From the NCBI GenBank assembly GCA_934120265.1, contig CAKOTU010000004.1, positions 285 to 64,284 of the forward strand: 64,000 bases of DNA, written 5' to 3'. The notes under the pieces are model-generated. The model had not been told where the DNA came from. It saw nothing but the letters and a program-made list of their open reading frames with translations, and did not search any database. The translations under genes and the position numbers were made by a program. Origin of the DNA: an uncultured Bacilli bacterium (GTDB lineage: Bacteria; Bacillota_I; Bacilli_A; RF39; UBA660). Below are positions 3,824 through 51,984 of the stretch, piece by piece. How positions within the stretch are numbered: the first letter of the stretch is position 1; each line of letters starts with the position of its first letter.

Positions 3824-5674
3824 ATGAAAAAGAAAGGATTTACTTTAATAGAGTTATTAGCAGTAATAGTAGTACTAGCAATAATAGCGCTAATCGCAAC
3901 ACCAATAGTAACAAGAGTAATAAATTCTAGTAAGGATTCTGCTAATAAAATAAGTGCAAGTAATTTTGCTAGTGAGGCTAATAAGTATGTAATAGAAGAA
4001 AGACTAAGTGGGAATATAAAGAATGGAAATATTTTTAATGAAGTGTCTAAAAGAATGAATGGTAAGAAACCTACTTCGGGAGTAGTTTATGCGGATGACA
4101 ATGGGAATATCGCTTTAGCTTTAGTATTTGATGATAAATGTTATACAAAGGAATACGGTAGTGATGAAATAAAAACAACTGACATTAATGAATGTCATGC
4201 CCCAGTAGATTATTTAGCACTTGGAAATACAGAGAATGATACAGAAGCAACATTCTTTAATGGACCTATCAAAAAAAGTAGTGTTGAAAAAATAGTGTTT
4301 GTAAATAGTAATCTTGTTCCAACAGATGCAATAGGAAAATGGAATGCAAGTGCAAGTGGTGAAGGAGATGTAGTTGCTTGGTACAAAGATGAAGATAAAA
4401 ATAACTTATACGAAGTATATATAGGTGGAAAAGACGGAGTAAAAGCTAATCCTAACTCATACAAATTATTTAATTATTTTACAAACTTAGTAAGTATAGA
4501 TTTAAAATATCTTGATACATCAAGCGTTATAGATATGTCTTTAATGTTTAATGATTGTTTAAATTTGACTACACTTAATTTAAGTAATTTTGATACATCA
4601 AGTGTTACAACTATGGCAGGTATGTTTCAGAACTGCTCCAAATTAATTACACTAGATTTAAGTAATTTTGATACTTCAAATGTTGTAAATATGAGAAATA
4701 TGTTTGCTTGGTGTTCAAATTTAAATGCCTTAGATTTAAGCAACTTTGACACGTCAAACGTTACTACTATGTATAGTATGTTTCAACTATGTTCAAACTT
4801 AACAACATTAGATGTAAGCCATTTTAATACATCAAACGTTACGAATATGTCATTTATGTTTAGCAAATGTTCAAGCTTAACAACATTAGATGTAAGTAAT
4901 TTTGATACATCAAACGTTACGAGTATGAAAGCTATGTTTCAACTATGTTCAAGTTTAACAACACTAGATGTAAGTAATTTTAATACATTGATGGTAACCG
5001 ATATGTCATATATGTTTAGCAAATGCTCAAGCTTAACAACGTTAGATGTAAGTAATTTTGACACCTCAAAGGTAACCAATATGGGATATATGTTTAATGA
5101 ATGCTCAAATTTGACAACATTAGATGTAAGCAATTTTGATACATCCAAAGTAACTGATATATCTCGTATGTTTCAAGGTTGTTCAAAATTAACCTATTTA
5201 GATGTAAGCAACTTTGATACATCGAATGTTACCAATATGCGTACTATGTTTCAAAAGTGTTCAAAATTAACTCAATTAGATGTAAGCAACTTTGATACAT
5301 CAAAAGTAACAGATATGGCTTATATGTTTTATGGATGTTCAAATTTAATAACATTAAACATAAGAGGCTTTAACACAACAAAAGTAACCGATATGAGTTA
5401 TATGTTTGAAAATTGTTCAAGGTTAACTAATTTAGATTTGAGTAGTTTTGAAACTAGTAAGTTACAAAATACGGAGCACATGTTTAATGGAAGTTCAAAA
5501 TTAGCAAATATTAATTTTTCAAAAGCAACATTTAACGCTGTAACTAAATATGATAAGATGTTTGGTGGATGTGGATTAATTAGTATTACAGTAAAAGATG
5601 ACGATGCAAAAACATTTATTGATGCTAGATTAAAAGATTCAAGTATTAATATTGAAGCAACAAAACAAAGCTAG
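3824..5674 (+). CDS. Modular prepilin-type protein: class III signal peptide, ~130-aa pilin-like head, 13 BspA/DUF285-type leucine-rich repeats
   Basis: MKKKGFTLIELLAVIVVLAIIALIATP. RBS gagaggag lies 10 nt before the ATG at 3824; the track start at 3794 has no RBS. The 25-aa periodic unit is LDVSNFDTSNVTNMxxMFxxCSxLTT. Confidence 0.85.
   Translation: MKKKGFTLIELLAVIVVLAIIALIATPIVTRVINSSKDSANKISASNFASEANKYVIEERLSGNIKNGNIFNEVSKRMNGKKPTSGVVYADDNGNIALALVFDDKCYTKEYGSDEIKTTDINECHAPVDYLALGNTENDTEATFFNGPIKKSSVEKIVFVNSNLVPTDAIGKWNASASGEGDVVAWYKDEDKNNLYEVYIGGKDGVKANPNSYKLFNYFTNLVSIDLKYLDTSSVIDMSLMFNDCLNLTTLNLSNFDTSSVTTMAGMFQNCSKLITLDLSNFDTSNVVNMRNMFAWCSNLNALDLSNFDTSNVTTMYSMFQLCSNLTTLDVSHFNTSNVTNMSFMFSKCSSLTTLDVSNFDTSNVTSMKAMFQLCSSLTTLDVSNFNTLMVTDMSYMFSKCSSLTTLDVSNFDTSKVTNMGYMFNECSNLTTLDVSNFDTSKVTDISRMFQGCSKLTYLDVSNFDTSNVTNMRTMFQKCSKLTQLDVSNFDTSKVTDMAYMFYGCSNLITLNIRGFNTTKVTDMSYMFENCSRLTNLDLSSFETSKLQNTEHMFNGSSKLANINFSKATFNAVTKYDKMFGGCGLISITVKDDDAKTFIDARLKDSSINIEATKQS
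4480..5520 (+). repeat. 13 in-frame ~75-bp LRR units (coordinates approximate)
   Basis: I counted 13 [NHGS]F[DNE]T[ST]xV motifs at 25-aa spacing. Confidence 0.8.
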
Positions 5675-5682
5675 AAAATAAG

Positions 5683-5716
5683 CACATAAGATTATATATT
5701 GTCTTATGTGTTTTTT
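5683..5716 (+). terminator. Intrinsic terminator after the first LRR-pilin gene
   Basis: cacataaga-(loop)-tcttatgtg followed by tttttt. Confidence 0.75.
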
Positions 5717-5782
5717 GACCAATAAAAACCATTTTAAAAAAGTGATAAACGTGTTATAATATTGTCATAGTGGAGGATAGAT

Positions 5783-7771: not shown

Positions 7772-7783
7772 AAGAGGTGTTAT

Positions 7784-9419: not shown

Positions 9420-9610
9420 TTGACAATAATTAATATTAAAAGGTATAATAAAAACAGTAAGGGTAGTGATAGTATGGTTAAAGAGATAAATAAAAATTTA
9501 ACTCAAAACCCGACATGGGGGGGGTATTTAATCATACTATAAAATTAAATAATAAAGAAAACACAAAGTTTCTAGACTTTTTAATAGTCTAGATTTCTCT
9601 GTGTTTTTTT
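9420..9610 (+). promoter_or_regulatory. Leader cassette copy 2 (G8 tract)
   Basis: TTGACA(9420)-18 nt-TATAAT(9444). Mini-ORF 9474-9542 encodes MVKEINKNLTQNPTWGGYLIIL. G-run 9517-9524. Terminator 9561-9610. Only ~52 nt separate the terminator from the ATG, and I see no second promoter. Confidence 0.7.
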
Positions 9611-9662
9611 GTTGTCCCTTTACTAAGTAAAGTAAATCTAAATAAAAGGAGGAGGAAATATT

Positions 9663-11438
9663 ATGAAAAATGAAAAAGGTTTTACTTTAATAGAGTTATT
9701 AGCAGTAATAGTAGTACTAGCAATAATAGCGCTAATCGCAACACCAATAGTAACAAGAGTAATAAATTCTAGTAAGGATTCTGCTAATAAAATAAGTGCA
9801 AGTAATTTTGCTAGTGAGGCTAATAAGTATGTAATAGAAGAAAGACTAAGTGGGAATATAAAGAATGGAAATATTTTTAATGAAGTGTCTAAAAGAATGA
9901 ATGGTAAGAAACCTACTTCGGGAGTAGTTTATGCGGATGACAATGGGAATATCGCTTTAGCTTTAGTATTTGATGATAAATGTTATACAAAGGAATACGG
10001 TAGTGATGAAATAAAAACAACTGACATTAATGAATGTCATGCCCCAGTAGATTATTTAGCACTTGGAAATACAGAGAATGATACAGAAGCAACATTCTTT
10101 AATGGACCTATCAAAAAAAGTAGTGTTGAAAAAATAGTGTTTGTAAATAGTAATCTTGTTCCAACAGATGCAATAGGAAAATGGAATGCAAGTGCAAGTG
10201 GTGAAGGAGATGTAGTTGCATGGTATAAAGATGAAGATAATAATAACTTATACGAAGTATATATAGGTGGAAAAGGTGGAGTAAAAGCTAATCCTAATTC
10301 TACTAAATTATTTAATTATTTTACAAACTTAGTAAGTATAGATTTTAAATATCTTGATACATCAAGTGTTACAAGTATGCAAGCAATGTTTCAGGACTGC
10401 TTTAAATTAACAACATTAGACTTAAGCGGTTTTGATACATCAAAAGTAACCGATATGGGTGGAATGTTTAATGATTGTTTAAATTTAACTACACTAGATG
10501 TAAGCAGTTTTAATACTTCAAACGTTACAAGCATGCGAGCTATGTTTCAAAAGTGTTCGAAACTAACTGCTTTGGATGTAAGCCATTTTGATACATCGAA
10601 TGTTACAAGTATGAGATATATGTTTAATAAATGCTCAAGTTTGACAATATTAGATGTAAGTCATTTTAATACATCAAATGTTACAAGTATGCAAGGAATG
10701 TTTGCCTGCTGTTCAAGTTTAACAACACTAGATGTGAGTCGTTTTAATACTTCAAACGTTACAAGCATGCGAGCTATGTTTGAACTTTGTTCAAATTTAA
10801 CAACATTAGATGTGAGTAATTTTGATACATCAGAGGTAACTAATATGACGTTTATGTTCAGTCAATGTTCAAGTTTAACAATATTAGATGTAAGCAACTT
10901 TGATACATCGAATGTTACAAATATGCATACTATGTTTCAGGACTGTTCTAAATTAAATGAATTAGATGTAAGTAACTTTAATACGTCAAGGGTAACTGAT
11001 ATGGGTGGTATGTTCAGTTTCTTAATAAATATTAAATCATTAGATGTTTCTCATTTTGATACATCAAATGTAACCAATATGAAATCTATGTTTAATGAAT
11101 GCAATAATTTGGAATCTTTAGATTTAAAAAATTTTAGTACAGGATTAGTAACAGATATGAGTTATATGTTTGAAAATTGTTATAAGTTGACTGATTTAGA
11201 TTTGAGTAGTTTTGAAACTAGTAAGTTACAAAATACGGAGCACATGTTTAATGGAAGTTCAAAATTAGCAACAATCAATTTCTCAAAAGCAACATTTAAC
11301 GCTATAACTAAATATGATAAGATGTTTGGTGGATGTGGACTGACTAGTATTACAGTAAAAGATGATGATGCAAAAACATTTATTGATGCTAGACTAAAAG
11401 ATTCAAGTATTAATATTGAAGCAACAAAGGTAAGCTAG
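9663..11438 (+). CDS. Modular prepilin-type protein, paralog of 3824-5674, with 12 BspA/DUF285-type LRR units
   Basis: MKNEKGFTLIELLAVIVVLAIIALIATP with RBS aaggaggagg. Nt 9681-10219 are identical to 3839-4377. The 3' ~290 nt are also near-identical. Confidence 0.85.
   Translation: MKNEKGFTLIELLAVIVVLAIIALIATPIVTRVINSSKDSANKISASNFASEANKYVIEERLSGNIKNGNIFNEVSKRMNGKKPTSGVVYADDNGNIALALVFDDKCYTKEYGSDEIKTTDINECHAPVDYLALGNTENDTEATFFNGPIKKSSVEKIVFVNSNLVPTDAIGKWNASASGEGDVVAWYKDEDNNNLYEVYIGGKGGVKANPNSTKLFNYFTNLVSIDFKYLDTSSVTSMQAMFQDCFKLTTLDLSGFDTSKVTDMGGMFNDCLNLTTLDVSSFNTSNVTSMRAMFQKCSKLTALDVSHFDTSNVTSMRYMFNKCSSLTILDVSHFNTSNVTSMQGMFACCSSLTTLDVSRFNTSNVTSMRAMFELCSNLTTLDVSNFDTSEVTNMTFMFSQCSSLTILDVSNFDTSNVTNMHTMFQDCSKLNELDVSNFNTSRVTDMGGMFSFLINIKSLDVSHFDTSNVTNMKSMFNECNNLESLDLKNFSTGLVTDMSYMFENCYKLTDLDLSSFETSKLQNTEHMFNGSSKLATINFSKATFNAITKYDKMFGGCGLTSITVKDDDAKTFIDARLKDSSINIEATKVS
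10322..11285 (+). repeat. 12 in-frame ~75-bp LRR units (coordinates approximate)
   Basis: I counted 12 F[DNSE]T[ST]xV motifs, one unit (25 aa) fewer than the paralog. Confidence 0.8.
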
Positions 11439-16431: not shown

Positions 16432-18540
16432 ATGAAGAATAATAAGGGTTTTGCAATAAGTAGTGTTGTTTATGCCATGTTAATACTTTTTTTAGGACTT
16501 ATCTTATTAATTTTAGGGAATCTAGCTAGTAGAAAGGCTATGTTTGATAAGGAAAAAAATGAAATACTTATGAGATTTAACGGTTATGAAGGGACCTTAT
16601 GTACTTTGATTGAAGGTGGGGCATATGATATTGGTTCTAAATATGAATGTGAATTAGGTGATAATGATCCAAAAATATTTTATGTTTTGGAATCAAGTGG
16701 AAGTAATATATCACTAATTATGAGTGCTAATGTTGATTCAAACGGGAAAGCTATAACTTCAACAAACATTCCTGATGACAAGGGTTTTTCTGCATGGGTG
16801 ACTCTAGGGGATTATATGTCCGCAGGAGGAACGGCATCTGATTTTGGTAGTGTTGGTGAGAATAGTCTTGGCCCACTTACAGCTTTAAAAAAACTAAAAG
16901 AGTTTACAAAACCATGGAAGAAATTAGCGCCATCACAAATTGTATTACCGACAGCAAATCAGGTAGCAACGGCAGGTGGAGATACAAAGTGGAGCGAAAG
17001 TTCAACCGGCAATGGATTTAGCTCTGCAACGTGGTTATATGATAATTTAAATGGAACTACTAATGCAGTTTCAGGTATATATGGTTATTGGACATCAACA
17101 GCTGTTGCATCCACTTCGAATCGTGCTTGGCGTGTGTACTCAACAGGTAACTTTCTTTCATATTTTGTTTCTTATGATGAAGGATACGGTATACGTCCAG
17201 TAATCACAATTTCAAAATCACAACTAGAAGTACCAATATTGTGTGTAGCTAAGACTACAGCAACAACAGGAAATGTATCTCGAGGAAGATATGAGTATGG
17301 TGATGAATACGAATGTGAATTAGGTGATGGACAAAAAAGAACATTCTTTATTTTGGATAAAACATCTACAGAAGTATCTTTAATAATGAGTGAGAACTTG
17401 GGAGCAGAAGCTGGATGGTGCAGTGATGATGATTGTAAAACAGACAATGTATGGGATAATACAAAAGGTCCAATAACTGCAAAAAGTGAACTTGAAAAAA
17501 GAACTACTAGTTGGAGTAAAATATCAAATAAAACAAAGATTACATTACCAACAGCACAACAAGTAGCAAAAGCCTCTGGCGAAACATTTAATAATTCTTC
17601 TGTTTCTGGGTTAGCAAAATGGTTGTGTGGGAATTTAAAAAGTGTTGTTGGATATTGGACATCAACACAGTTTATTGAAAATACATATGGTGCTTGGTAT
17701 GTTGGCTATAGCAATGATATTCGTGTTGATAGTATTGGAAATGACTATGATTATGGTATACGTCCAGTAATCACAATACCAAAAGCACAAATAAAATCAC
17801 CAAAGGTACAAAAATATAGAAATGGTAGTGAAGTATATTTTAATGTAACAACAGGTGTAAAATGTACATCATCAGATTATACAGAAACACAAAGCAATAT
17901 AGGTGTAAATAGTGGATGTATGAAGTTCTATATTTTTAATGATGATGGTGGTGACACATTAAATTTAATTTTAGATCATAATACAACTGCAACAATTTTA
18001 TGGAATTCAAGTGGAAGTAGTACTAGCGGTCCAAAAGAAGCGTTAACACAATTAAAAACTGATACAGAAAATTGGAATGGAACGGAAACTCCAACAAACT
18101 ATGCGATTGATCAAACAGGCCAAACAAGTGGTGCAAAATATATAATAGATTATAGTGCATACAAGGCAAGATTTATAACAGCACAGGAAGTAGCAACAAT
18201 CACAGGAAATACATCTTGGAATGAAAAAAATGCAAGTAGCGTATTTTACTTTGATACAAATGCAACAAGTAATAGTTCAACATGTCAAAGTGGGGATATA
18301 AGTGGATGCGCTTATGGATGGCTATATGATAGAACAAAACCTGATTGTACGACATATGGATGTAAAAACAATTCAGATAAGTCAACATTGGGATATTGGA
18401 CAGTTTCTCCTCGTGCTGAAAGTATTAGAGAAAATTGGTGCGTTGCTTATGAAGGTTATCTTGGCGATTATATTGTTAACTTCCCAGCTTATTATGGTAT
18501 ACGCCCAGTTATAGAAATATCGGCAAAGAAACTTTTATAA
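16432..18540 (+). CDS. Three-module surface protein with a degenerate pilin-like N-terminus (no Glu+5)
   Basis: MKNNKGFAISSVVYAMLILFLGLILLIL. There are two type-A modules (YECELGD...LIMS...LPTA.QVA...GYWTST...YGIRPVITI) and one type-B module homologous to the 26834 C-terminus. RBS agaggtga. Confidence 0.75.
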   Translation: MKNNKGFAISSVVYAMLILFLGLILLILGNLASRKAMFDKEKNEILMRFNGYEGTLCTLIEGGAYDIGSKYECELGDNDPKIFYVLESSGSNISLIMSANVDSNGKAITSTNIPDDKGFSAWVTLGDYMSAGGTASDFGSVGENSLGPLTALKKLKEFTKPWKKLAPSQIVLPTANQVATAGGDTKWSESSTGNGFSSATWLYDNLNGTTNAVSGIYGYWTSTAVASTSNRAWRVYSTGNFLSYFVSYDEGYGIRPVITISKSQLEVPILCVAKTTATTGNVSRGRYEYGDEYECELGDGQKRTFFILDKTSTEVSLIMSENLGAEAGWCSDDDCKTDNVWDNTKGPITAKSELEKRTTSWSKISNKTKITLPTAQQVAKASGETFNNSSVSGLAKWLCGNLKSVVGYWTSTQFIENTYGAWYVGYSNDIRVDSIGNDYDYGIRPVITIPKAQIKSPKVQKYRNGSEVYFNVTTGVKCTSSDYTETQSNIGVNSGCMKFYIFNDDGGDTLNLILDHNTTATILWNSSGSSTSGPKEALTQLKTDTENWNGTETPTNYAIDQTGQTSGAKYIIDYSAYKARFITAQEVATITGNTSWNEKNASSVFYFDTNATSNSSTCQSGDISGCAYGWLYDRTKPDCTTYGCKNNSDKSTLGYWTVSPRAESIRENWCVAYEGYLGDYIVNFPAYYGIRPVIEISAKKLL

Positions 18541-18591: not shown

Positions 18592-18812
18592 ATAAAAACT
18601 TTGAACTTGAGGAGTAAACTAAAGCGTTTTAAAGAGAGTCTATGGTTGGTGGAAATAGATAAATTAATTGGTTGAAGGTAGCAAGCCAGTTGAATATCTA
18701 AGTAAATAGGATATTACGTATATTATGCGTTAAATAATTAAGGTGTAGAAATACATAAATTAAGGTGGTACCACGTAAACTCACGTCCTTATCTAGGATG
18801 TGAGTTTTTTAT
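18592..18812 (+). promoter_or_regulatory. T-box leader controlling valS
   Basis: Promoter TTGACA(18556)-18-TATAAT(18580). AGAGAG plus distal loop GGTTGGTGGAA. F-box-like GCGTTAA. T-box AAGGTGGTACCACG. Terminator actcacgtcct/aggatgtgagt plus tttttt. The likely specifier is GUA within gaaGGUAGc, but the register is ambiguous. Confidence 0.85.
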
Positions 18813-21436: not shown

Positions 21437-21826
21437 ATGAACGAGTTAAATAATGTAGTAACTGCAACTGGACAATACAATAACATCCCAACCTCACTTA
21501 CTTCTAATACTTCAGTAGTTAATATGATAGAAGGACTTACGCTAACTAAAGAAGCGGATAAACAAAATTGGAGTAGTGGAGATTTAACATACACAATAAC
21601 TTTAAAAAATGAAACAGATAAGGTATATTCAAATTTGGTCATTAAAGATGTTATTAATACAACTTTAGTAGAGTTTGTAAAAGGAAGTGTGACTATTAAT
21701 GATACTCCTGCAACTGAATCACAATATTCTTATGATGAAGGTAGTAGTACATTAACAATCAATTTAAGTGATGCCGGACCCTCATCAACAAATACTCTCA
21801 CGTTTCGCGTTACAAAAAAAAGTTAA
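21437..21826 (+). CDS. Small DUF11-like (conserved repeat domain) beta-sandwich protein, possibly truncated at an A8 run
   Basis: LTKEADK...GDLTYTITLKN...V.IKDVI...FV.GSVTIN...TLTINL...TLTFRVT resembles the DUF11 repeat. RBS gggaggtga. See the finding on 21812-21971. Confidence 0.55.
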   Translation: MNELNNVVTATGQYNNIPTSLTSNTSVVNMIEGLTLTKEADKQNWSSGDLTYTITLKNETDKVYSNLVIKDVINTTLVEFVKGSVTINDTPATESQYSYDEGSSTLTINLSDAGPSSTNTLTFRVTKKS

Positions 21827-22105: not shown

Positions 22106-22468
22106 ATGAAAATGAATAAGAAAGGTTTTACTTTAATTGAATTATTAGCAGTTATCGTAGTATTAGCTATTATCGCTTTAATCGCTACTCCAATTGTTAT
22201 GAGTACAATTAATAAAGCTCAAGAAGGTGCAAATAAGAGATCTGTAGAAGGTTACATGAAAGCTTATGAAGCAGCATATTATGAATATATGCTTGAAAAT
22301 GGTGGTGCTGAACCAGCAACTAAATTAACTTCAGGTATTGATTATAATGGTGCTACAGTTACTTGTGAAACAGTTACAGTAACAGCTGATAAAAAATTCA
22401 GTGCTACTTGTACAGTAAATGGTAAGACTTACAAATATGAAAATGGAAAAGCTGATAATAATAAATAA
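22106..22468 (+). CDS. Short type IV pilin / pseudopilin-like protein (120 aa)
   Basis: MKMNKKGFTLIELLAVIVVLAIIALIATPIV, then a ~85-aa head with 2 Cys. RBS ggtggtga, an upstream TTGACT-type promoter and its own terminator. Confidence 0.85.
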   Translation: MKMNKKGFTLIELLAVIVVLAIIALIATPIVMSTINKAQEGANKRSVEGYMKAYEAAYYEYMLENGGAEPATKLTSGIDYNGATVTCETVTVTADKKFSATCTVNGKTYKYENGKADNNK

Positions 22469-24874: not shown

Positions 24875-25284
24875 TAGATTTATTTAATAAATATAAAGAA
24901 GTAATTATGTATTTAATATTTGGTGTTTTAACAACGGTTGTAAGTTTGGTTACTTATTATGCTTTAACACTTACAATATTAAATCCTAATAGTGCTTTAC
25001 AATTACAATTAGCAAATATTATATCTTGGATTTTAAGTGTAGCGTTTGCTTATATCACTAATCGTAAGTTTGTATTTGAAAGTAAAAGTGAAAATATCGC
25101 TAAAGAATTAAGTTCTTTTGTGGGCGGTAGAATATTAACTTTACTCATGGATATGGCAATTATGTTTATATTTGTGACATTATTACATTTTAATGATAAA
25201 ATATTTAAAATGATATCACAAGTAATAGTTATAGTAGCAAATTATATAATAAGCAAATTATTTGTCTTTAAAGAAAGCAAATAG
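24862..25284 (+). CDS. GtrA-family membrane protein (putative lipid-linked sugar flippase)
   Basis: 140 aa with 4 TM helices. Overlaps the GtrB-like gene by 13 nt. Ends in the typical NYIISKLFVFK. Confidence 0.7.
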   Translation: MQKVVDLFNKYKEVIMYLIFGVLTTVVSLVTYYALTLTILNPNSALQLQLANIISWILSVAFAYITNRKFVFESKSENIAKELSSFVGGRILTLLMDMAIMFIFVTLLHFNDKIFKMISQVIVIVANYIISKLFVFKESK

Positions 25285-26491: not shown

Positions 26492-26508
26492 GCTATAAAC
26501 TAAAAATG

Positions 26509-26701: not shown

Positions 26702-26833
26702 GTTGACCTTTATAGGAAAGGAGTTGTTGTATAAGTACATAAAAATGCCAAAAACATGTATTATGGCTGGATGTTTATTATGAACAAAACAGGGTATAAT
26801 TAAAGTATAAAGTAAATAAGGAGGTAAGAAAAG

Positions 26834-33253: not shown

Positions 33254-33929
33254 GTTGATCGTTGTTGAAGGGACTGATTGTTCTGGAAAAGAAACTCAGA
33301 CTAATCTTTTATTAACTAATCTACATAATGATAATATAAAGGTTGAAAAATTTAGCTTTCCGAATTATCAATCACCAACTGGAAAAATAATAGGTGGACC
33401 TTATTTAGGAAAAAGTTATATTTGTGATGGTTGGTTTCCTGAGGGAGCTCCAAAAGTAGATCCTAAAGTTGCCGCTCTATATTATGCAGCTGATAGAAAA
33501 TATAATATTTATAAGATAAATTTTTTGCTCGAAAATGGTGTAAATGTTATTTTAGATAGATATGTATATTCCAATATGGCTCATCAAGGTGGAAAAATAA
33601 AAGATAATAATGAAAGATTTGCTATGTATGATTGGCTTGATAAGTTGGAATTTGGTTTGTTAGAACTTCCTGAGGCAGATATTAAAGTGTTCTTACATTT
33701 ACCTGTTGAACAAGCAGCTAAGCTTCGCATGGGAAGAGAAGAAGCTCTAGATGAGAACGAAAAGGACATAAATCATTTAAAAGATGCAGAAAGAGCTTAC
33801 AAGGAAATAGCTAATAAATATGGTTTCAAAACAATTGAGTGTAATGTTGGTAATGATATAAGAACTATTGACACTATTCAAGATGAATTATATGATTTTA
33901 TAAAGAAAGAGATTTCTTTCAGAAATTAG
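33243..33929 (+). CDS. tmk: Thymidylate kinase-like protein (variant P-loop)
   Basis: VVEGTDCSGKETQ (canonical form is EGxDGxGK[ST]T). The DRY motif is present (ILDRYVYSN). Confidence 0.6.
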   Translation: MRGKLIVVEGTDCSGKETQTNLLLTNLHNDNIKVEKFSFPNYQSPTGKIIGGPYLGKSYICDGWFPEGAPKVDPKVAALYYAADRKYNIYKINFLLENGVNVILDRYVYSNMAHQGGKIKDNNERFAMYDWLDKLEFGLLELPEADIKVFLHLPVEQAAKLRMGREEALDENEKDINHLKDAERAYKEIANKYGFKTIECNVGNDIRTIDTIQDELYDFIKKEISFRN

Positions 33930-34096
33930 TTATTGTATAATAAAGACAGTAAGGGTAGTGATAGTATGGTTAAAGAGACAAATGTATTAATTAAAAAATC
34001 AACCTGGTGGGGTATTTAATCATACTATAATAATAAAAAATAAAGAAAACGCAAAGTTTCTAGACTTTTTAGTAGTCTAGATTTCTTTGTGTTTTT
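33913..34096 (+). promoter_or_regulatory. Leader cassette copy 4 (interrupted G tract)
   Basis: TATAAT at 33936; the -35 region falls inside the tmk 3' end. Mini-ORF 33966-34019 encodes MVKETNVLIKKSTWWGI. The tract is ggtgggg at 34006-34012. Terminator 34049-34096. Confidence 0.65.
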
Positions 34097-34228
34097 ATGT
34101 GTACCTTTATAGGAAAGAAGTTGTTGTATAAGTACATAAATGTGTCGAAAACATGTATTATGACTAGATGTTTATAATAAACAAAATAGGGTATAATTAA
34201 AATGTAAATCATAAGGGAGGTAAAAAAG

Positions 34229-35164
34229 ATGAAAAAAAGAGGATTTACTTTAATAGAGTTACTAGCGGTAATAGTAGTATTAGCAATAATCGCACTTATT
34301 GCAACACCAATAGTAATGAACACAATAAAGAATGCTAAGAAAGGAGCTGCAGAAAGAAGCGCAGATAGCTATCTTAAACAATTAGAATTAACAATAGCTG
34401 AAACTAGGTTAGAAAATAAACCAGTATCTGATGGTACATATTCTATAAATGCAGAAGGAAATCTAGAAGGAAATGGTTTAATAACACCATTAGTAGTAGA
34501 AATGAATGGAAATAAACCAACTGGAGGAACAGTAGTAATAACAAATGGCGAGGTATCACCATCAGAAACAAATATGATAATAGGAGAATATAATTTACGT
34601 TATAATGAAACATCAAAGAGCTATACTGCCGAAGTAGCAGTTAAATTATGTAAAAAAGCATCAAGTGTAAATTTAAGCGATTTAAAATTAGGTGATGAAT
34701 TTACATGTGATTTAGGTGATGAAGAATCAACTAAAAACTTAGTATTCTATGTGTTAGAAAAAAATGGTTCACAAGTATCTTTGATTATGAATAAAGTATT
34801 CACAACTCCAGCAGGAGATAAAGTTCCATATTCAATGAAAGCTAATGTATTTAAACTTTTCAAATATACTAAACTAGATGAATCACAAATTACTTTACCA
34901 AGTGGAGAGCAAATTGCCGCAGCAAGTAATAATACAACTTGGACACCAAGTGGTTCTAATACAGCTTTAGTTACAAATCAAATGCCAAATTGGTTAAAAA
35001 CAAATCTAGAGGTTACTGGTACATACTGTTATTGGACATCTACTGAGTTTGATTCTAGTAAACAATGGGGTGCTGGATTAAAAGGTTTATATGCTGAAAC
35101 AGCAACATCTGCAACTTGTGGATTCCGTCCAGTTATAACAGTCTCAACATCTGATTTAGGTTAA
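34229..35164 (+). CDS. Modular prepilin-type protein with one type-A DUF1566-like module
   Basis: MKKRGFTLIELLAVIVVLAIIALIATPIVM. The pilin head contains VVEMNGNKPTGGTVVITNGEV. Module: GDEFTCDLGD...SLIMN...ITLPSGEQIAAA...CYWTST...CGFRPVITVS. Confidence 0.85.
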   Translation: MKKRGFTLIELLAVIVVLAIIALIATPIVMNTIKNAKKGAAERSADSYLKQLELTIAETRLENKPVSDGTYSINAEGNLEGNGLITPLVVEMNGNKPTGGTVVITNGEVSPSETNMIIGEYNLRYNETSKSYTAEVAVKLCKKASSVNLSDLKLGDEFTCDLGDEESTKNLVFYVLEKNGSQVSLIMNKVFTTPAGDKVPYSMKANVFKLFKYTKLDESQITLPSGEQIAAASNNTTWTPSGSNTALVTNQMPNWLKTNLEVTGTYCYWTSTEFDSSKQWGAGLKGLYAETATSATCGFRPVITVSTSDLG

Positions 35165-43427: not shown

Positions 43428-43447
43428 GCACTGATTGTGCTTTTTTT
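43426..43447 (+). terminator. Intrinsic terminator after greA
   Basis: aagcac-tgatt-gtgctt followed by ttttt. Confidence 0.75.
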
Positions 43448-43482
43448 CTTTATTGTGGTATAATTTTTGTAGAGGTGATGGT

Positions 43483-44634
43483 ATGAACATTAATAATTTA
43501 GATGAATTTATTAGTGAAGAATTGTCACGACGTCTTGGAGAGGAAATTAAAGGAAATTATTTTACTGATAAAATGTTATCTTGGTTGGAAACATTAACTA
43601 TAAATTCAATGACTTCTCCTAAAACTATTTCAAGATTAACAAATTTAAAAAAATTAAACATTATAGGCCAAACCCAAAGAGAATATGGAGATAATATAGT
43701 TATAGATTATGATGAAATAAACGAATTAAAAAATCTAGAACAATTAGTTATTTTAAATAATTATCATATTAAAAGTTTAGATTTGAGTAATTTGGAAGAT
43801 TTAGAATGTCTAATATTAGTTGCTAATCAAAATTTAGAAGTAATTAAGGGTTTAGATCAACTTAAACATTTAAAGCATGTTGTTATTGTAGGAAGTAATA
43901 TTAAAAATAAAGAGTGGTTGGAAAGTTATATTTCAAATACAAAGAAGACAAAAATAAATATTTTAGATTATCGTTTATTTAATTACATTGCTAAGGATAA
44001 GAATCTTCAGAGTAAATTATTTGAAACAATTGGTAGTTGCCAAACTAACTTATTATTTGCGGAAAAAATAGGAATTGGTGAGATATTCTGTTATACATAC
44101 TCTATGATTGATGAAATATATACTCGAGCTAATCAAATAATTAAGGAAAATATTTCTGATAGTATGTCAGAAGAAGAAAAAGTAAGAGTATTATATAATT
44201 ATGTTATTAATCACTTAGATTATGACACAGAAGAACTTGAAAAAAGAGATAACTTGATTTTAAAAGATGAAAGAATTATAAAGGTTTATAAAAATAAGTA
44301 TAAGTATATAAATAGTAGCTATAGAGCTTTTACTACTGGTAAAGTAGTGTGTGAAGGGTATGTTGGTATGCTTATATATCTTCTTTCTCAAATTGGGATA
44401 GAAGCAAGAAATGTATATTGTGTAGTTAAAGCTTTTGGTAGAAGTATAGATGGATATTACAATCATTCAGCAATTAAAATTAAAATAAATGGTGAATGGT
44501 ACTATTTTGATCCACAGATAGAAGAAAAGAATCAAGATAATAAGTATTTTATGCAAACAAAAGAGGAATTTAGTGTAACTCATGATATTTTGGTTACAAC
44601 AGAACTACAAGAAAAACAGAAAATAAAAAGATAG
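43483..44634 (+). CDS. Cytoplasmic LRR plus transglutaminase-like cysteine protease-fold protein
   Basis: LRR units (LEQLVILNNYHIKSLDLSNLEDLECLILVANQNLEVIKGLDQLKHLKHVVI), then a Cys-His-Asp core (VCEGYVGML...YNHSAIKIKINGEWYYFDP). No signal peptide. ATG at 43483 follows agaggtga. Confidence 0.65.
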   Translation: MNINNLDEFISEELSRRLGEEIKGNYFTDKMLSWLETLTINSMTSPKTISRLTNLKKLNIIGQTQREYGDNIVIDYDEINELKNLEQLVILNNYHIKSLDLSNLEDLECLILVANQNLEVIKGLDQLKHLKHVVIVGSNIKNKEWLESYISNTKKTKINILDYRLFNYIAKDKNLQSKLFETIGSCQTNLLFAEKIGIGEIFCYTYSMIDEIYTRANQIIKENISDSMSEEEKVRVLYNYVINHLDYDTEELEKRDNLILKDERIIKVYKNKYKYINSSYRAFTTGKVVCEGYVGMLIYLLSQIGIEARNVYCVVKAFGRSIDGYYNHSAIKIKINGEWYYFDPQIEEKNQDNKYFMQTKEEFSVTHDILVTTELQEKQKIKR

Positions 44635-46171: not shown

Positions 46172-46537
46172 ATGAAAAAGGGATTTACTTTGATAGAACT
46201 ATTAGCTGTTTTAGTTGTTTTAGGATTACTTGGATTAATAGTTATTCCTGTTGTAGATAAAATATTAAAAGATAGTAGAAATGATTTATATGATTTACAA
46301 ATTAAAAATATAGAAGATGGTGCCAGAAATTGGGCTGCTAAAAATCCACTAACACTTCCTGAAAATGGAAATTCAACAACAAAAACAATAGCTGAATTAG
46401 AGGAAGAAGGATTTATTGAGGTTGATGTAAAAAATCCTAAGACTGGTGAAGTTTTTTGCGACGATTCTTATGTAACAATAACTAATACAGGTAGTGGTTT
46501 TACTTATAGTTATGATGCTGATTCAGGAAGTTGTTAA
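46172..46537 (+). CDS. Short prepilin-type (pseudopilin/ComGC-like) protein immediately upstream of murE
   Basis: MKKGFTLIELLAVLVVLGLLGLIVIPVV. RBS gaggtga. 11 nt to the murE ATG, with no terminator between. Confidence 0.8.
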   Translation: MKKGFTLIELLAVLVVLGLLGLIVIPVVDKILKDSRNDLYDLQIKNIEDGARNWAAKNPLTLPENGNSTTKTIAELEEEGFIEVDVKNPKTGEVFCDDSYVTITNTGSGFTYSYDADSGSC

Positions 46538-46548
46538 TAGGTGGATAT

Positions 46549-47922
46549 ATGATAAAAATAAAAACAGATTCAAGAAAAATAGTACCTGGGGATACTTTTG
46601 TTGCACTTCCAGGAATTAGTAGTGATGGACATGACTACATTGATTTAGCAATAAAAAATGGAGCAGCCAAAATAGTTGCGGAACATGGATCTTATAGTGC
46701 TCCAACAGTTATTGTTCCCGATACAAGAGTTTATTTAAATCAGTTATTGGAACAAGAATATGGCTATATTATTGATGAGATGAAAATTGTTGGAATTACT
46801 GGAACTAACGGTAAGACAACTAGTTGTTACTTGACTTATCAAATATTAAATAATTTAGGTATAAAATGTGCTTATATAGGTACAATTGGTTTTTATCTAA
46901 AAGATAAAGTAAGAAATTTGCCTAACACTTCAGTTGATATTGCCGACTTGTATGGGCTTTTAGTAGAAGCTTATGAAAATGGATATAAATATGTATGCTT
47001 AGAAGTTAGTAGTCAAGGATTATCAATGAACAGATTCCAAACAATAAAATTTGATGTAGCGGTATTTACTAATTTAACGCAAGATCATTTAGATTATCAT
47101 AAAACAATGGATAATTATTGCGTAGCTAAACAACAACTATTTAAGCAAATCAAAAAAAATGGTAAAGCTATTATTAATAGTGACGATAAATATAAAGATC
47201 ATTATTTATTAAATGATAATGATAATGTAACTTTTGGTAAGAATGGTGATTATAAAATATTATCTATGAAATTTTCTAGTAAAATATCATTATTAGAATA
47301 TTCATATAATAATAAAAATTATGTAGCCAAAACACATCTTTTGGGAGAGTATAATCTTTATAACCTAATAACTTCTATTTCTATTTGCCATGAGCTTGGA
47401 ATTGATTTAGATGAAATAAATAGTGTTATAGATAAATTAAAAATGCCAAGTGGACGTATGGAGAAGATAGAATACAACGATAATGTTATAATAGTTGATT
47501 ATGCTCATACACCTGATGCGATTGAAAATATTTTAAAAACAATAAAACCGATATGTGAAGGGAATTTATATGTGGTTTTTGGATGTACTGGTAGTCGTGA
47601 TAAAACTAAAAGACCTATTATGACTAATATGGTTTTAAATAATGTTACCAAGGCTATTATAACAATAGATGATCCCCACGATGAAGATCCTAAAGAAATA
47701 GTAAATGATATGTTAAAAGGAATAAACCTAACTAATTATGAGATTTGTTTAGATCGTAAGAAAGCTATACATCTTGGTATGGATTTATTAAGAGAAAATG
47801 ACTTTTTGCTAATATTAGGTAAAGGTCATGAAGAATTTATAATATTTAAAGATAAGAAAATTCCTTTTAATGATAAAAATGAAGTATTAAGTTATATCGA
47901 TTATAAAAAGCAAAATGCCTAG
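46549..47922 (+). CDS. murE: MurE-family UDP-MurNAc-tripeptide synthetase paralog 1 (DDPH in place of DNPR)
   Basis: GITGTNGKTT, DYAHTPDA, ITIDDPHDEDP. ATG at 46549 follows taggtgga. Confidence 0.85.
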   Translation: MIKIKTDSRKIVPGDTFVALPGISSDGHDYIDLAIKNGAAKIVAEHGSYSAPTVIVPDTRVYLNQLLEQEYGYIIDEMKIVGITGTNGKTTSCYLTYQILNNLGIKCAYIGTIGFYLKDKVRNLPNTSVDIADLYGLLVEAYENGYKYVCLEVSSQGLSMNRFQTIKFDVAVFTNLTQDHLDYHKTMDNYCVAKQQLFKQIKKNGKAIINSDDKYKDHYLLNDNDNVTFGKNGDYKILSMKFSSKISLLEYSYNNKNYVAKTHLLGEYNLYNLITSISICHELGIDLDEINSVIDKLKMPSGRMEKIEYNDNVIIVDYAHTPDAIENILKTIKPICEGNLYVVFGCTGSRDKTKRPIMTNMVLNNVTKAIITIDDPHDEDPKEIVNDMLKGINLTNYEICLDRKKAIHLGMDLLRENDFLLILGKGHEEFIIFKDKKIPFNDKNEVLSYIDYKKQNA

Positions 47923-47972
47923 TAGAACACCTAGTGATATTTGTCATAGAATATCACAGGAGGTGTTTTTTT

Positions 47973-49313
47973 GTGAATATAAAAAGTGATTCACGTAAAG
48001 TTGAAAAGGGAGATACTTTTGTTGCTTTAAAATATTCCAATGATGGCCATCAATATATTGAAGATGCTATTAAAAGAGGTGCGACTAGTGTAGTTGCAGA
48101 ACATGGTTTATATAGTGTTGATACACTTATTGTCAAAGATACTCATGAATATTTGGTAAATTATTTAAAAACTAATTATTGGGATAAAATAAAAGATTTA
48201 AAAATTATTGGAATGACAGGAACTAATGGAAAGACAACAACTTGTTATCTTTTACATAAAGCGTTAAATATGCTTGGAGAAAAAAGTGCTTATATAGGTA
48301 CAATTGGTTTTTATATTGATGAAAAAATAAAGAATTTAGAGAATACAACTCCAGATATTTTAGAAATATATGAGATGCTACTAAAAGCTAAGAACGAGAA
48401 TTGTAAATATGTTGTTATGGAAGTAAGCAGTCATGCTTTAAGTTTAAATAGAGTAAAAGGATTAGAATTTGATATGGCACTATTTTCTAATTTGACTCAG
48501 GATCATCTTGATTACCATCATACAATTGATAACTATTTGAATGCTAAAAAGAAATTATTTACAATGTTAAAAAATGATAAATTGGCTATTATAAATATAG
48601 ATGATAAATATTATAAGGATTTTATTATGGAAGAAAATAATAATAAAACATATGGTTTTAAAGATTCTAATTATCAAATAACAAAATATAATTATAATCT
48701 TAATGAAAGTAATTTTGTTATTAATGATTGTGATATTTATAAAACTAAATTAATAGGAAAGTATAATATTTATAATCTAACTTTGATTATAGCAGCTTTA
48801 AATAATTTAGGTTTTGACTATGAACAAATATCTAAGGTTATAGAAAATTTAGATAGTCCTAGTGGTAGGATGGATAAAATAATGTATGGTAGTAATGCTA
48901 TTATTATTGATTATGCTCATACACCTGATGCAGTAGAAAATGTATTATTAACAGCAAAAGAATTAAATCCTAATCACCTTTACGTAATAGTTGGATGTGG
49001 TGGAGATAGAGATAAGACAAAACGCCCAATAATGGGGAAAATAGCTGTTAATAATGCTGATCATGTGGTATTTACTAGTGATAATCCTAGAACAGAAGAT
49101 CCAGATGAAATAATACAAGATATAGTACAAAAGCTTGACAAAAAAAACTATGAAATTGAAGTAAATCGAGAAAAAGCTATTATTAGGGGTATACAATTAC
49201 TAAAAGAAAATGATATACTAATGGTGCTTGGTAAAGGACATGAAAACTATCAAATTATTGGTAAAGATAAAATATTTTTTGACGATAAAAAGGTAGTATT
49301 AGATAATATATAG
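47973..49313 (+). CDS. murE: MurE paralog 2 (meso-DAP-type DNPR motif)
   Basis: GMTGTNGKTT, DYAHTPDA, FTSDNPRTEDP. GTG at 47973 lies 7 nt after aggaggtg. Confidence 0.9.
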   Translation: MNIKSDSRKVEKGDTFVALKYSNDGHQYIEDAIKRGATSVVAEHGLYSVDTLIVKDTHEYLVNYLKTNYWDKIKDLKIIGMTGTNGKTTTCYLLHKALNMLGEKSAYIGTIGFYIDEKIKNLENTTPDILEIYEMLLKAKNENCKYVVMEVSSHALSLNRVKGLEFDMALFSNLTQDHLDYHHTIDNYLNAKKKLFTMLKNDKLAIINIDDKYYKDFIMEENNNKTYGFKDSNYQITKYNYNLNESNFVINDCDIYKTKLIGKYNIYNLTLIIAALNNLGFDYEQISKVIENLDSPSGRMDKIMYGSNAIIIDYAHTPDAVENVLLTAKELNPNHLYVIVGCGGDRDKTKRPIMGKIAVNNADHVVFTSDNPRTEDPDEIIQDIVQKLDKKNYEIEVNREKAIIRGIQLLKENDILMVLGKGHENYQIIGKDKIFFDDKKVVLDNI

Positions 49314-49324
49314 GAGTTGATATA

Positions 49325-50317: not shown

Positions 50318-50338
50318 ATAGCATAATGCTATTTTTTT
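50318..50338 (+). terminator. Intrinsic terminator directly after mraY
   Basis: atagca-taa-tgctat followed by tttttt. Confidence 0.65.
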
Positions 50339-50397
50339 CTTGCATTTTTTAGAACTATTATATATAATTGAATTAGTAATAATAAGGATGTGGAAAT

Positions 50398-51984
50398 ATG
50401 AGAAATAAAAAAGGATTTACTTTAATAGAATTATTAGCCGTAATAATAATATTATCTGTGTTAGTAGTTATTACAGCGCCTGTGATTTCTAATTCAATAG
50501 AAAATTCTAAAAGAAGTAGTGCGATGGAGAGTGCTAATAGTTTGATTCAATCGGCGGAGTATTATTTTTTAAGTGCATCGCCAAAATATGGTAAGATTGA
50601 TGTTTTAAGTGATAAATTAAGTTATAAAGGTGAAAAACCGGACTTGGGAGAAGTTGAAATAAATAAACAAGGAAAATCAAGAATTTATACATATGTTAAT
50701 GGCTATTGTATAACAAAGGAGTTTGGTACTGAATTATATGCAAATAAAATGAATAAAGAAGATTGTAGTTGGTTTGGAACAGATAATTATGAGACAACAG
50801 AAGGAACAACATTTACATTAAATAATCAAACAATAAAAAATTATTTAATATATGGCAATAGTATTCAAGATGGTACTCCAACGCCAGATAATTCTGCCGA
50901 AGTAAAAAGTACTGGAGATTTACTAACAAGTAGTAATTGTGCTAGCTATGGAAGTGATGCATGTAGTAACATCGGTAAGTATGTAGTACAAGTTAAGGAT
51001 AGAGGTAAGAATCTGTTTGATTATAGTTATTTAAAGCAACAGGGCTCATCGGGTGGTTTAACAATGACAAGCACTGGTGACGTTATAACAATTAATGGAA
51101 CATTAACTAATTCTGGTGATATAAAACTTTCTGATGTTTTCCCAAATATATTTGATGTAAATAAAACCTATACATTAAAAATTGATGTAGTAGGTGGAAG
51201 TGGGACCATTGGAGAAGGAACAGGAATAACGTTTGCGTTTTCTTTGTTTAATTCAGCAAACACTAAATATATAAGAACAAACGTAAATGCAACAGCGCTA
51301 GATAATATAGCTTCTGTAACCTTTTCTGGAAGTGTTTTTGCAGGAGAAGAGAAATTACACCTTTTATTACAAAATTGGAGATTAGGAAATACTTACAGTA
51401 ATTATCAAGTAAGGATTCAAATAGAGGAAGGCAGTAGTGCAACATCTTATGAAAGCTACAAAGCAGCTTTAACAAATATATATTTAGATGAACCATTAAG
51501 AAAAATAGGAGATTATGCAGATTACATAGATTTTTATAATAAAAAAATAGTGAGAAGAGTTAGTAGTAAAACTTTTGATGGAACAGAGCGTTGGACTATA
51601 ATGACAGATGTAGGGGTAGCTAGAGCAATGCAACACACATTAACAGACAGCAAAGCTAATACCACAAAATCTTTATTAGCACAATCTAATTATTATGTTG
51701 GCGCTACTTGGGAGGATGTATATAATGGTAAGATTGGTGTTGCAAGAAGTAAAGATGCAATAAGAATTAGACCTAAAGAAACCTTGCCAACTATTGCTGA
51801 ATGGAAAGCGTTTTTACAGCAACAAAATAATGCAGGAAATCCGTTAGTAGTAAATTATGTATTGGCAGAGCAATCAGAAGAAACGATAGATTTACCAAAT
51901 ATAGAATTATTAGATGGTAGTAGCACACTATTAATTAATACTGAAGTAAGTCCAAGTAAAGTTACATTAACAACAAATAAATAA
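50398..51984 (+). CDS. Modular prepilin-type protein with a ~400-aa C-terminal domain of unknown (possibly phage-fibre-like) type
   Basis: MRNKKGFTLIELLAVIIILSVLVVITAPV, with a pilin head to ~aa 125. The C-terminal part contains IYGNSIQDGTPTPDNSAEVKSTG, GKNLFD, IEEGSSATSYESY and LRKIGDYADYIDF. Confidence 0.8.
   Translation: MRNKKGFTLIELLAVIIILSVLVVITAPVISNSIENSKRSSAMESANSLIQSAEYYFLSASPKYGKIDVLSDKLSYKGEKPDLGEVEINKQGKSRIYTYVNGYCITKEFGTELYANKMNKEDCSWFGTDNYETTEGTTFTLNNQTIKNYLIYGNSIQDGTPTPDNSAEVKSTGDLLTSSNCASYGSDACSNIGKYVVQVKDRGKNLFDYSYLKQQGSSGGLTMTSTGDVITINGTLTNSGDIKLSDVFPNIFDVNKTYTLKIDVVGGSGTIGEGTGITFAFSLFNSANTKYIRTNVNATALDNIASVTFSGSVFAGEEKLHLLLQNWRLGNTYSNYQVRIQIEEGSSATSYESYKAALTNIYLDEPLRKIGDYADYIDFYNKKIVRRVSSKTFDGTERWTIMTDVGVARAMQHTLTDSKANTTKSLLAQSNYYVGATWEDVYNGKIGVARSKDAIRIRPKETLPTIAEWKAFLQQQNNAGNPLVVNYVLAEQSEETIDLPNIELLDGSSTLLINTEVSPSKVTLTTNK

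Follow-up and report, generated by a model that had tools for sequence, protein, structure and literature searches.

Dispersed modular type IV pilin genes, several of them behind a poly-G leader cassette, in a human-gut Bacilli lineage

Results

Prepilin-type genes

The stretch of DNA analysed here, called the window throughout, comprises 64,000 nucleotides (nt) from the genome of an uncultured Bacilli bacterium (positions 285 to 64,284 of contig CAKOTU010000004.1, assembly GCA_934120265.1), and carries a set of genes whose products begin with the signal of type IV prepilins. A six-frame motif scan of the window found exactly eight K/R-G-F-T-L-[IV]-E sites, all on the + strand and all at the beginning of open reading frames (ORFs), which start at 3824, 9663, 22106, 26834, 34229, 39594, 46172 and 50398 and have the G-F-T-L-[IV]-E motif 3-6 residues past the start codon. 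All eight score above the curated cut-offs of both Pfam N_methyl and NCBIfam TIGR02532 and show the features of a class III signal, namely a short basic leader, Gly at -1, Phe at +1 and Glu at +5. A ninth ORF, 16432 (702 amino acids, aa), is of a degenerate type: its N-terminus, MKNNKGFAISS, lacks Glu at +5 and has no N_methyl match, and is similar to those of two degenerate minor pilins that adjoin the pilus machinery in relatives (see below). These nine genes, with their starts, coordinates and sizes (120-702 aa) and the degenerate character of 16432, had been correctly picked out in an earlier sequence-only reading of the window. Its count was nevertheless one short. The window begins within a tenth gene, of which ORF 8-1414 is the 3' part; the whole gene encodes an 800-aa N_methyl plus Big_13 protein with Ala rather than Gly at -1 (leader ...KRKA/FTLIELMGV, the slash marking the cleavage site). 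All ten genes are listed in Table 1 together with the other features discussed below.

Table 1. Positions of the prepilin-type genes, the glycosylation-type genes and the leader-cassette copies in the window
Feature	Position	Strand	Details
Tenth prepilin-type gene, 3' part	1-1414	+	Whole gene at L001:7584-9986; N_methyl 24.6 bits (cut-off 21.2); Big_13 Ig-like repeats
Cassette copy 1	3488-3679	+	Promoter TTGAAA-17-TATAAT 3488-3516; ATG 3541; G9 3584-3592; stop 3598-3600; hairpin ~3626-3679
Modular pilin, 616 aa, ~11-12 PARCEL/DUF285 repeats	3824-5674	+	N_methyl 30.1, DUF285 418, TIGR02167 424 bits
Cassette copy 2	9420-9612	+	Promoter TTGACA-18-TATAAT (12/12); ATG ~9474; G8 9517-9524; terminator ~9557-9610
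Modular pilin, 591 aa, PARCEL/DUF285 cargo	9663-11438	+	DUF285 246, TIGR02167 374 bits
702-aa protein, Glu5-less prepilin-like N-terminus (MKNNKG/FAISS), three lectin-like modules	16432-18540	+	Each module ends in GIRPVI
Short pilin, 120 aa, candidate major subunit	22106-22468	+	N_methyl 35.1 bits; partial ComGC and GspG matches
Wzy_C O-antigen-ligase-like protein	22550-23875	+	Pfam 63.9 bits
GT2 glycosyltransferase	23930-24874	+	Pfam 125.3 bits
GtrA-like protein	24862-25284	+	Pfam 82.3 bits
Cassette copy 3	26505-26705	+	G10 26605-26614; leader ORF of 40 aa, in the terminator-entering frame
Modular pilin, 378 aa	26834-27970	+	Predicted (AF2) alpha1 helix 8-61, beta head 69-136, C-type-lectin-like module 145-378
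Cassette copy 4	33915-34100	+	Interrupted G tract (GGTGGGG); one-codon deletion in leader ORF
Modular pilin, 311 aa, one lectin-like module	34229-35164	+	
Modular pilin, 386 aa	39594-40754	+	Overlaps end of yrrM-like methyltransferase gene; own terminator before U32 peptidase genes
Short pilin, 121 aa	46172-46537	+	Between HD-domain gene and first Mur ligase gene (7-nt overlap)
Modular pilin, 528 aa, ~390-aa cargo	50398-51984	+	N_methyl 32.2 bits

The products are true proteins of the type IV pilin family. Their N-termini align with those of pilins from solved filaments, including MshA and PilE1 of Streptococcus sanguinis, and Glu5, which is required for subunit packing and not for cleavage, is kept in eight of the nine window genes. 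Most of them carry extra C-terminal domains, as modular pilins do; those recognised here are DUF285/PARCEL, DUF6273, Big_13, a putative C-type-lectin-like module and one associated with phage tails. The N-termini might alternatively be ordinary signal-anchor helices that resemble prepilin signals, owe their uniformity to recent duplication and are acted on by no peptidase. Indeed, the first 30 residues are almost identical in five paralogues, so that these five N-termini do not count as independent observations. The divergent paralogues 39594, 46172 and 50398 and the tenth gene, however, retain G/A-F-T-L-[IV]-E-L despite different DNA, the motif is invariant across 63 homologues at 62-88% identity, and the lineage encodes an A24 peptidase; we therefore consider the signal-anchor explanation highly improbable.

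Relatives were sought in species-representative genomes by exact pattern with the conserved 5' sequence of the pilin genes. The pattern was found in UMGS688 ('uncultured Tenericutes bacterium'), in CAKPHO01 (a metagenome-assembled genome, Hadza/Nepal) and in one short contig of an 'uncultured Eubacteriales bacterium'; a metagenome scan with the pilin 5' pattern gave 120 loci. L numbers, in the text and in Table 1, denote loci outside the window. Housekeeping proteins of UMGS688 and CAKPHO01 are mostly 92-99% identical to those of the window, the ortholog of 16432 is conserved in CAKPHO01, and all contigs with window proteins derive from human-gut metagenomes.

Cargo modules

The assignment of BspA/DUF285-type repeats to two genes, 3824 and 9663, and of a short-pilin form to two others, 22106 and 46172, is borne out by profile matches and sizes (Table 1). 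Four further genes had been credited with seven DUF1566-like modules. The four genes stand, with six modules rather than seven that end in G[IVF]RP[VI]I (three in 16432 and one each in 26834, 34229 and 39594), and the Pfam profile DUF1566 (PF07603) has no match in the window pilins at E ≤ 0.01. DUF6273 scores 32.0 bits in 16432 (cut-off 23.5) and 18.0 bits, below the cut-off, in 26834. An AlphaFold (AF2) model of 26834, built with 63 homologues (predicted local distance difference test, pLDDT, 86.9), shows an alpha1 helix of 54 residues, then a small beta head and, at the C-terminus, a distinct module. In a Foldseek search the sole significant match of this model in the PDB was the Thomasclavelia ramosa IgA peptidase (9qa6; probability 0.99, E 1.8e-3, query TM-score only 0.33), the match being to the entry as a whole and not assigned to one domain of the enzyme. 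The C-terminal domain of Legionella Lcl is the founding member of DUF1566. The N-terminal domain of the T. ramosa enzyme has been described as C-type-lectin-like and as resembling this Lcl domain (PMC12237041), which makes the label 'DUF1566-like' a reasonable one for these modules at the level of the predicted fold only. The family of 26834 is large, with more than 6,500 homologues in metagenomes.

The cargo of 50398 (~390 aa) had been called a domain of unknown kind. This holds in so far as it has no direct match in Pfam or PHROG, but homologues connect it with phage tail-fibre proteins. Its homologues at E ≤ 1e-10 fall into 2,043 representative clusters, many of them without a pilin N-terminus, and the homologous modules sit at the C-terminal ends of large proteins. 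Among seven long homologues checked, three match PHROG tail or tail-fibre families (one of them also with a Pfam Tail_P2_I domain) and a fourth matches a virion structural protein family; one of the tail-fibre matches overlaps the region held in common with 50398. The connection, which is transitive only, through these homologues, suggests a receptor-binding domain common to phages and a pilin. An AF2 model of 50398 made without an alignment was unusable (pLDDT 37.6).

In a sample of 25 pilins of the lineage most cargo belonged to no Pfam family, and a protein search with the first 63 pilin residues returned only fragments of 50-111 aa, which are uninformative on cargo diversity. Pilin genes of the lineage are often N-terminal fragments (50-170 aa) followed by separate cargo ORFs, on long contigs (for example L019:1669-2663), which suggests frequent frameshifts or pseudogenes within the family.

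Pilus machinery

The sequence-only reading had noted the absence of pilus machinery from the window. This was confirmed: tblastn of PilB, PilC and PilD of the lineage against the window gave nothing better than E = 0.14, and none of the three appears in precomputed Pfam annotations of the 10 kb upstream and the 10 kb downstream. The puzzle that this absence had posed, and the orphan export route that it might have implied, dissolves in relatives bearing the same cassette, which encode a compact T2SSE/T2SSF/A24 locus. One of the 120 loci, L089, encodes the C-terminus of a T2SSF protein, a prepilin peptidase (254 aa), a T2SSE ATPase (515 aa) and two degenerate pilins, and 5 kb away, past ylbJ-like and ylbL-like genes and uvrC, a modular pilin of the lineage's type with the leader cassette described below. 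Homologues of the L089 ATPase at 95-100% identity were found on many gut contigs, always in the same setting between sigA and uvrC: dnaG, sigA, trmK and yqfQ are followed by T2SSF (838 aa), Peptidase_A24, a divergent T2SSE gene, two minor pilins, a Gate-domain gene, a ylbL-like gene, uvrC and a pilin cassette. The domains found in the machinery of relatives are T2SSE (PF00437), A24_N_bact plus Peptidase_A24, and T2SSF.

Leader cassettes on the machinery contigs are 77-84% identical in DNA to the window copies, and in two samples one PilB variant is found together with the exact 26834 protein of the window. The lineage thus has the machinery, and the window's own genome very probably has it as well. 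Since cassette-bearing relatives carry a PilB/PilC/PilD locus elsewhere, a new secretion route need not be invoked; export would follow the ordinary prepilin peptidase/T2SSE/T2SSF route.

Two proteins of the machinery have unusual features. In the 838-aa T2SSF/PilC platform (L143:12332-14848, minus strand; also L142 and L148-150) the C-terminal 400 aa match GspF/PilC, and the N-terminal 430 aa form an extension of repeated transmembrane hairpins and acidic/basic low-complexity sequence that matches no family. The PilB-like ATPase (L143:10001-11536; variants P0290-P0312) is without the usual N-terminal domains and ends in an acidic, low-complexity tail whose length varies between strains (499-523 aa).

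Short pilin and glycosylation genes

The short pilin 22106 has 96-98% identity to its counterparts in two further species, as against 65-79% for cargo pilins. It is followed by genes for Wzy_C, GT2 and GtrA proteins, which on this arrangement are a candidate module for O-glycosylation of the pilin; the layout is similar to that of pilA-tfpO/PglL O-glycosylation, combined here with a lipid-sugar supply of the GtrA/GtrB type. Neither these genes nor the leader cassette had figured in the earlier reading. A GDSL esterase gene (25338-26462) comes after the three genes. Just upstream of 22106 lies a gene for a 129-aa DUF11-domain protein without an obvious signal peptide (21437-21826), 91% conserved in relatives.

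Dispersal and recombination

Pilin genes are spread through the window, in which nearly all genes lie on the + strand. Their sites at yutD/prfB, ftsX/lon and ysxE/valS and downstream of valS are also occupied by pilins in CAKPHO01, the last of them in UMGS688 too. The pilin genes are not recent strain-specific insertions. The idea that each gene interrupts blocks contiguous in Bacillus subtilis presumably holds for yrrM/yrrN, ysxE/valS and murE-mraY, and not for ftsX/lon or yutD/prfB. Further pilins of the lineage adjoin pnp, pheST (two in tandem), proS, uvrC, gltX/ackA, spoIIP, ABC-F, class II aminoacyl-tRNA synthetase and dGTPase genes, and the contigs of two short pilin matches again show housekeeping contexts. 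Most pilin genes end with a terminator hairpin of their own; three (39594, 46172 and 34229, the last 11 nt before a dGTPase gene) lie inside operons and have no separate promoter. The pilin genes are self-contained units at operon borders throughout the chromosome.

The pilin modules of 3824 and 9663 are 100% identical in DNA over at least 400 nt, after which identity drops to ~70-80% in the repeats, and the proteins are identical from GFTLIELL through residue 191 of 3824. At a given site the cargo varies between organisms. The ftsX/lon alleles differ by exactly one 26-residue repeat; downstream of ftsX a PARCEL pilin in the window corresponds to a 368-aa pilin with N_methyl only and no DUF285 in L042; and the uvrC site holds unrelated cargo in organisms whose PilB is 98% identical. 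Identical pilin modules with cargo that differs at fixed sites point to recombination that keeps the pilin module uniform while swapping the cargo, and the sequences compared indicate that close relatives have exchanged one cargo for another at the same site. The earlier suggestion of a dispersed repertoire of interchangeable modular pilins is supported by this homogenised module, by the differing cargo of paralogues and by the replacement of cargo at the same site.

Such dispersal is far from the rule. The PilFind survey, which covered 53 Gram-positive genomes, predicted 286 pilins and placed 214 of them in operons with biosynthesis genes, usually with 0-2 per genome outside (PMC3244431), whereas all ten window pilins lie outside biosynthesis operons; a cultured Erysipelotrichales genome has just one tad locus and one comG locus (PMC12786226). 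In the lineage studied here at least 10 pilin genes fall within ~74 kb, with more elsewhere, all away from the machinery.

Leader cassette

Four of the window pilin genes, 3824, 9663, 26834 and 34229, are preceded by a conserved unit of ~200 nt, of which relatives have many copies. It consists, in order, of a near-consensus sigma-70 promoter (11/12 and 12/12 consensus matches), a leader ORF with a Shine-Dalgarno sequence and an ATG start and with a G tract inside it, a terminator hairpin, a ribosome-binding site (RBS) and the pilin gene. The start and the end of the leader ORF pair in a 13-base-pair (bp) stem, P1, and the terminator is a 20-bp hairpin with a U run; RNAalifold recovered both. 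In copy 2 the RBS and the pilin start follow directly, with no second promoter. This is the short form of the cassette, seen at 9663, in L149 and in most copies of relatives, in which the pilin RBS lies ~50 nt past the terminator, leaving no room for another promoter. Before 3824, 26834 and 34229 there are ~150 nt between terminator and pilin, and a second promoter at the conserved GGGTATAAT in these three long copies was not found (no match of ≥9/12 with a legal spacer). Rfam has no match for the cassette: the window, scanned at gathering thresholds, gave just two T-boxes elsewhere, and one leader copy gave nothing even at permissive E-values. A role of the G tract in a promoter spacer was considered and rejected, as the spacing does not fit.

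Two diverged arrangements were seen in other loci. At L028 ~11300-11438 (minus strand) a cassette with G11 and a different terminator sequence precedes a pilin with a different alpha1 sequence, and the cassette type must hence be older than the window's lineage. At L104:6632-7813 (minus strand), from a related lineage, the pilin begins with MKKNKAWGGGGTYSK followed by GFTLIELL and has an interrupted G-rich run inside the prepilin leader; it looks as if the leader ORF were fused to the pilin gene.

G tracts and reading frames

The pure tracts G9, G8 and G10 of the cassettes are the only G/C runs of ≥6 in the 64-kb window, where ~0.04 runs of G8 would be expected from base composition. In the loci of relatives 11 G/C runs of ≥8 were scored against the pilin start; ten lie 135-150 nt upstream of it on the pilin strand and the eleventh at 120, and the remaining runs, in loci not scored against a pilin start, are also in leader cassettes. 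Tract length differs between samples at the same locus, as at contingency loci: the 26834 locus has G10 in the window and G9, G9, G11 and G12 in four other samples with an identical encoded pilin, and the 3824 locus has G9 or G10.

The leader is read as a coding sequence. Over 20 distinct copies its frame is free of stops, which number 41 and 30 in the other two, and leader lengths are multiples of three (39, 42 or 51 nt) in all but two copies. The peptide has the form M-V-K/N...P-T-W-G-G; substitutions are spread over all codon positions, so that the leader sequence seems to matter little apart from P-T-W-G-G, its most conserved stretch. A translated leader ORF is thus followed by an intrinsic terminator and then by the structural gene, which is the layout of attenuation. 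After the tract, two of the frames stop 31 or 20 nt before the terminator, and the third, the through-frame (...FNHTIIINNKENTKFLDLFVV), runs on to a TAG within the 3' arm of this hairpin. Of the window copies, that of 26834 alone has the through-frame. The predicted minimum-free-energy structure of the RNA is identical for G6-G13, which means that tract length does not act through folding, and an action by that path was rejected.

Discussion

We favour, as the somewhat more probable account, a set of modular type IV pilins displayed by one minimal machine, with a poly-G leader switch on a subset of them. One prepilin peptidase would cleave all the window pilins, and one PilB-like ATPase with a PilC-like platform, from the single sigA-uvrC locus, would assemble them. 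The main subunit would be the conserved 120-aa pilin 22106, to which the products of the adjacent Wzy_C, GT2 and GtrA genes may add O-glycans; the modular pilins would be present at low abundance or at the tip and offer alternative adhesins. For the switch, the cassette has the architecture of phase-variable attenuation, and its function may be predicted from that architecture. Slippage in the G tract would set the reading frame of the leader. In the through-frame, one in three, the ribosome would enter the terminator hairpin, stop in its 3' arm and block termination, so that the pilin would be expressed; in either of the other frames it would stop 20-31 nt before the hairpin and transcription would end. 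Each adhesin gene would be switched on or off independently. A bolder version, in which a new phase switch of this kind spans the whole library, the frame of the poly-G leader letting ribosomes disable the terminator so that one machine shows a stochastically changing set of lectin-like, leucine-rich-repeat-like and phage-tail-fibre-like binding heads, is possible but in our view doubtful.

Several findings weigh against the favoured account. As to the filament, PilT, PilM, PilN and PilO were not found within 10 kb of the machinery (L142, L143, L148-150), and the ATPase is below all NCBIfam equivalog cut-offs (GspE 496 against 630, PilB 489 against 676, ComGA 270 against 300). The machinery lies on contigs of close relatives and is linked to the window genome by co-occurrence in samples, with unequal coverage in one shared sample (19x versus 4.9x). 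The filament could also be a Com-like pseudopilus, although ComGB, like ComGA, scores below its cut-off (147 against 240), the GspE/PilB and GspF/PilC models score higher than the Com models, and the ATPase gene is divergent from the platform-peptidase pair, unlike in a comG operon.

The minimal set of ATPase, platform and peptidase without PilT and PilMNO nearby, and an ATPase that cannot be assigned to the PilB, GspE or ComGA equivalogs, also speak for surface display without a pilus, as do comEC near the machinery and cargo of 600-800 aa, bulky for a filament subunit. In such a case the prepilin signal would serve only for insertion and trimming, and the adhesins would be held by alpha1 as a membrane anchor or carried through the wall by a short Com-like pseudopilus; archaeal surface proteins with class III signals (the sugar-binding proteins of the bindosome) are an analogue. 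Against it stand the conservation of complete pilin heads (the beta head, residues 69-136, with invariant G/P/Y positions across the 63 homologues), the retention of Glu5 and the presence of a conserved short pilin with a glycosylation module. Moreover, the organism has peptidoglycan synthesis genes, so that a membrane-tethered adhesin would lie beneath the wall. We regard display without a pilus as unlikely, and assembly into a filament by the one machine as the better account.

As to the switch, stem covariation is minimal, with one compensatory pair, because the cassette is so conserved; the ~150-nt gap in three window copies could hide a weak second promoter; and some of the variation in homopolymer length from one assembly to another could be an artefact of assembly. 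Attenuation coupled to ribosomes is not known to be common in Bacilli, whose RNA polymerase runs ahead of the ribosomes. The share of through-frame leaders (~8 of 34 copies) shows no excess over the third expected by chance, and G9, which gives a short frame ending in ...PTWGGVI and a stop, is by far the commonest form. The last two points would suit a conventional cis-regulatory leader, controlling the terminator on receipt of a signal through an arrest or regulatory peptide or through a protein-bound hairpin, in which the poly-G tract would simply encode Gly-Gly and changes of its length would be neutral or noise of assembly. The conservation of P-T-W-G-G and the copies with interrupted tracts (34229 in the window, L098, L133 and L014) fit such a leader as well. 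It would, however, leave to be explained why glycine is encoded exclusively by GGG, giving pure G8-G12 in a genome of 28% guanine plus cytosine (GC) that has no other such runs in 64 kb, and why lengths range from 9 to 12 at one locus with flanks otherwise near-identical; nor does the cassette match Rfam, and no alternative antiterminator fold is predicted. A conventional leader seems to us fairly unlikely, and a frame-dependent switch on the subset of pilin genes with cassettes the preferable reading.

The protein architecture itself is not new, for pilin fusions of the types IPR012902-DUF285 and IPR012902-DUF1566 are among more than 1,200 modular pilins catalogued earlier (Dataset S1 of Raynaud 2021, PMC8179133); the sequence-only reading, which spoke of known cases as one or two genes beside the machinery, understated this catalogue. 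As in PilB and PilC of S. sanguinis, a pilin module is joined through a linker to an adhesive module. In S. sanguinis, however, one or two modular pilins lie inside the pil locus, whereas the lineage studied here has its far larger set dispersed, swaps cargo at fixed sites and has a switch-like leader on a subset. With type IV and Com pili of Gram-positive bacteria it has in common the class III signal, an A24 peptidase, T2SSE, T2SSF and a short pilin with a ComGC/GspG-like N-terminus; it differs in its platform, a T2SSF protein of 838 aa of which 430 form an extension at the N-terminus, and in an ATPase that is matched by no equivalog model. Lipoproteins with PARCEL/DUF285 repeats in Mycoplasma and Listeria (TIGR02167, Mbov_0838 family) have the same array of 26-residue repeats and are variable surface proteins of low-GC Bacillota and Mollicutes, but they are anchored by a lipoprotein signal and those of the window by a pilin module.

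Phase variation by homopolymer tracts is known from Neisseria pilC (poly-G), Moraxella uspA1 (poly-G in the 5' leader), Bordetella fim (poly-C) and Mycoplasma vlp (poly-A). As in these systems, the G tract of the cassette is tied to surface adhesin genes, is polymorphic in length and belongs to a family of genes that would be independently switchable; the known tracts lie in the gene's own coding sequence or in a promoter spacer, whereas here the tract is in a separate upstream leader ORF before an intrinsic terminator. Clostridioides difficile cwpV is switched by DNA inversion, and trp and erm attenuation by physiological stalling. In these, as in the proposed switch, an intrinsic terminator in the leader RNA decides expression, and classical attenuation likewise uses the position of the ribosome, but the proposed input here differs in being a heritable frameshift of the leader ORF.

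In the literature searched we found no description of such a number and dispersal of pilin genes, of cargo replacement at fixed sites, of a poly-G leader/terminator cassette, here on four genes, or of a pilin with a phage-tail-fibre-type module, and in this sense these are what is new here. If the favoured account is true, a gut lineage uses a type IV pilus as a universal display scaffold whose specificity is chosen from interchangeable, switchable cargo pilins, the equivalent in a commensal of the systems by which pathogens vary their adhesins and antigens. The concept of the modular pilin would widen beyond one or two accessory subunits to cover an entire variable repertoire, and the leader-ORF frameshift/terminator design would join the known types of phase switch. 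The lectin-like, PARCEL and phage-tail-fibre-like modules would be candidates for attachment to mucus, host cells or other microbes in a lineage that recurs in Hadza and Nepali gut metagenomes. The promoter-leader-terminator cassette is small and can be tested directly with a reporter.

Host lineage and neighbouring genes

The description of the host as a spore-forming low-GC bacterium agrees with what was found. Sporulation genes (Spore_YunB, SpoVID-N, CotS-like YsxE, Coat_F, BclA_C, YqfQ and SpoIIP) mark the lineage as a spore former, and the window has ~28% GC with a strong positive GC skew. The 10 kb upstream of the window contain nrdDG, an M23 peptidase gene and others. At the other end, 61500-64000 is the start of a gene for a 1,251-aa MMPL transporter, beyond which (L015:6066-9821) lie CotF and several collagen-like BclA_C genes of the exosporium type.

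T-box leaders occur at 18592-18793, upstream of valS (118 bits), and at 56900-57080, upstream of leuS (106 bits). Between greA and an HD-domain gene, 43435-44634 encodes leucine-rich repeats and a transglutaminase-like core in one protein. Two tandem Mur ligase genes (46531-47922 and 47934-49313) have stretches of DNA that are 76-81% identical, and look like MurE-type paralogues rather than murE plus murF.

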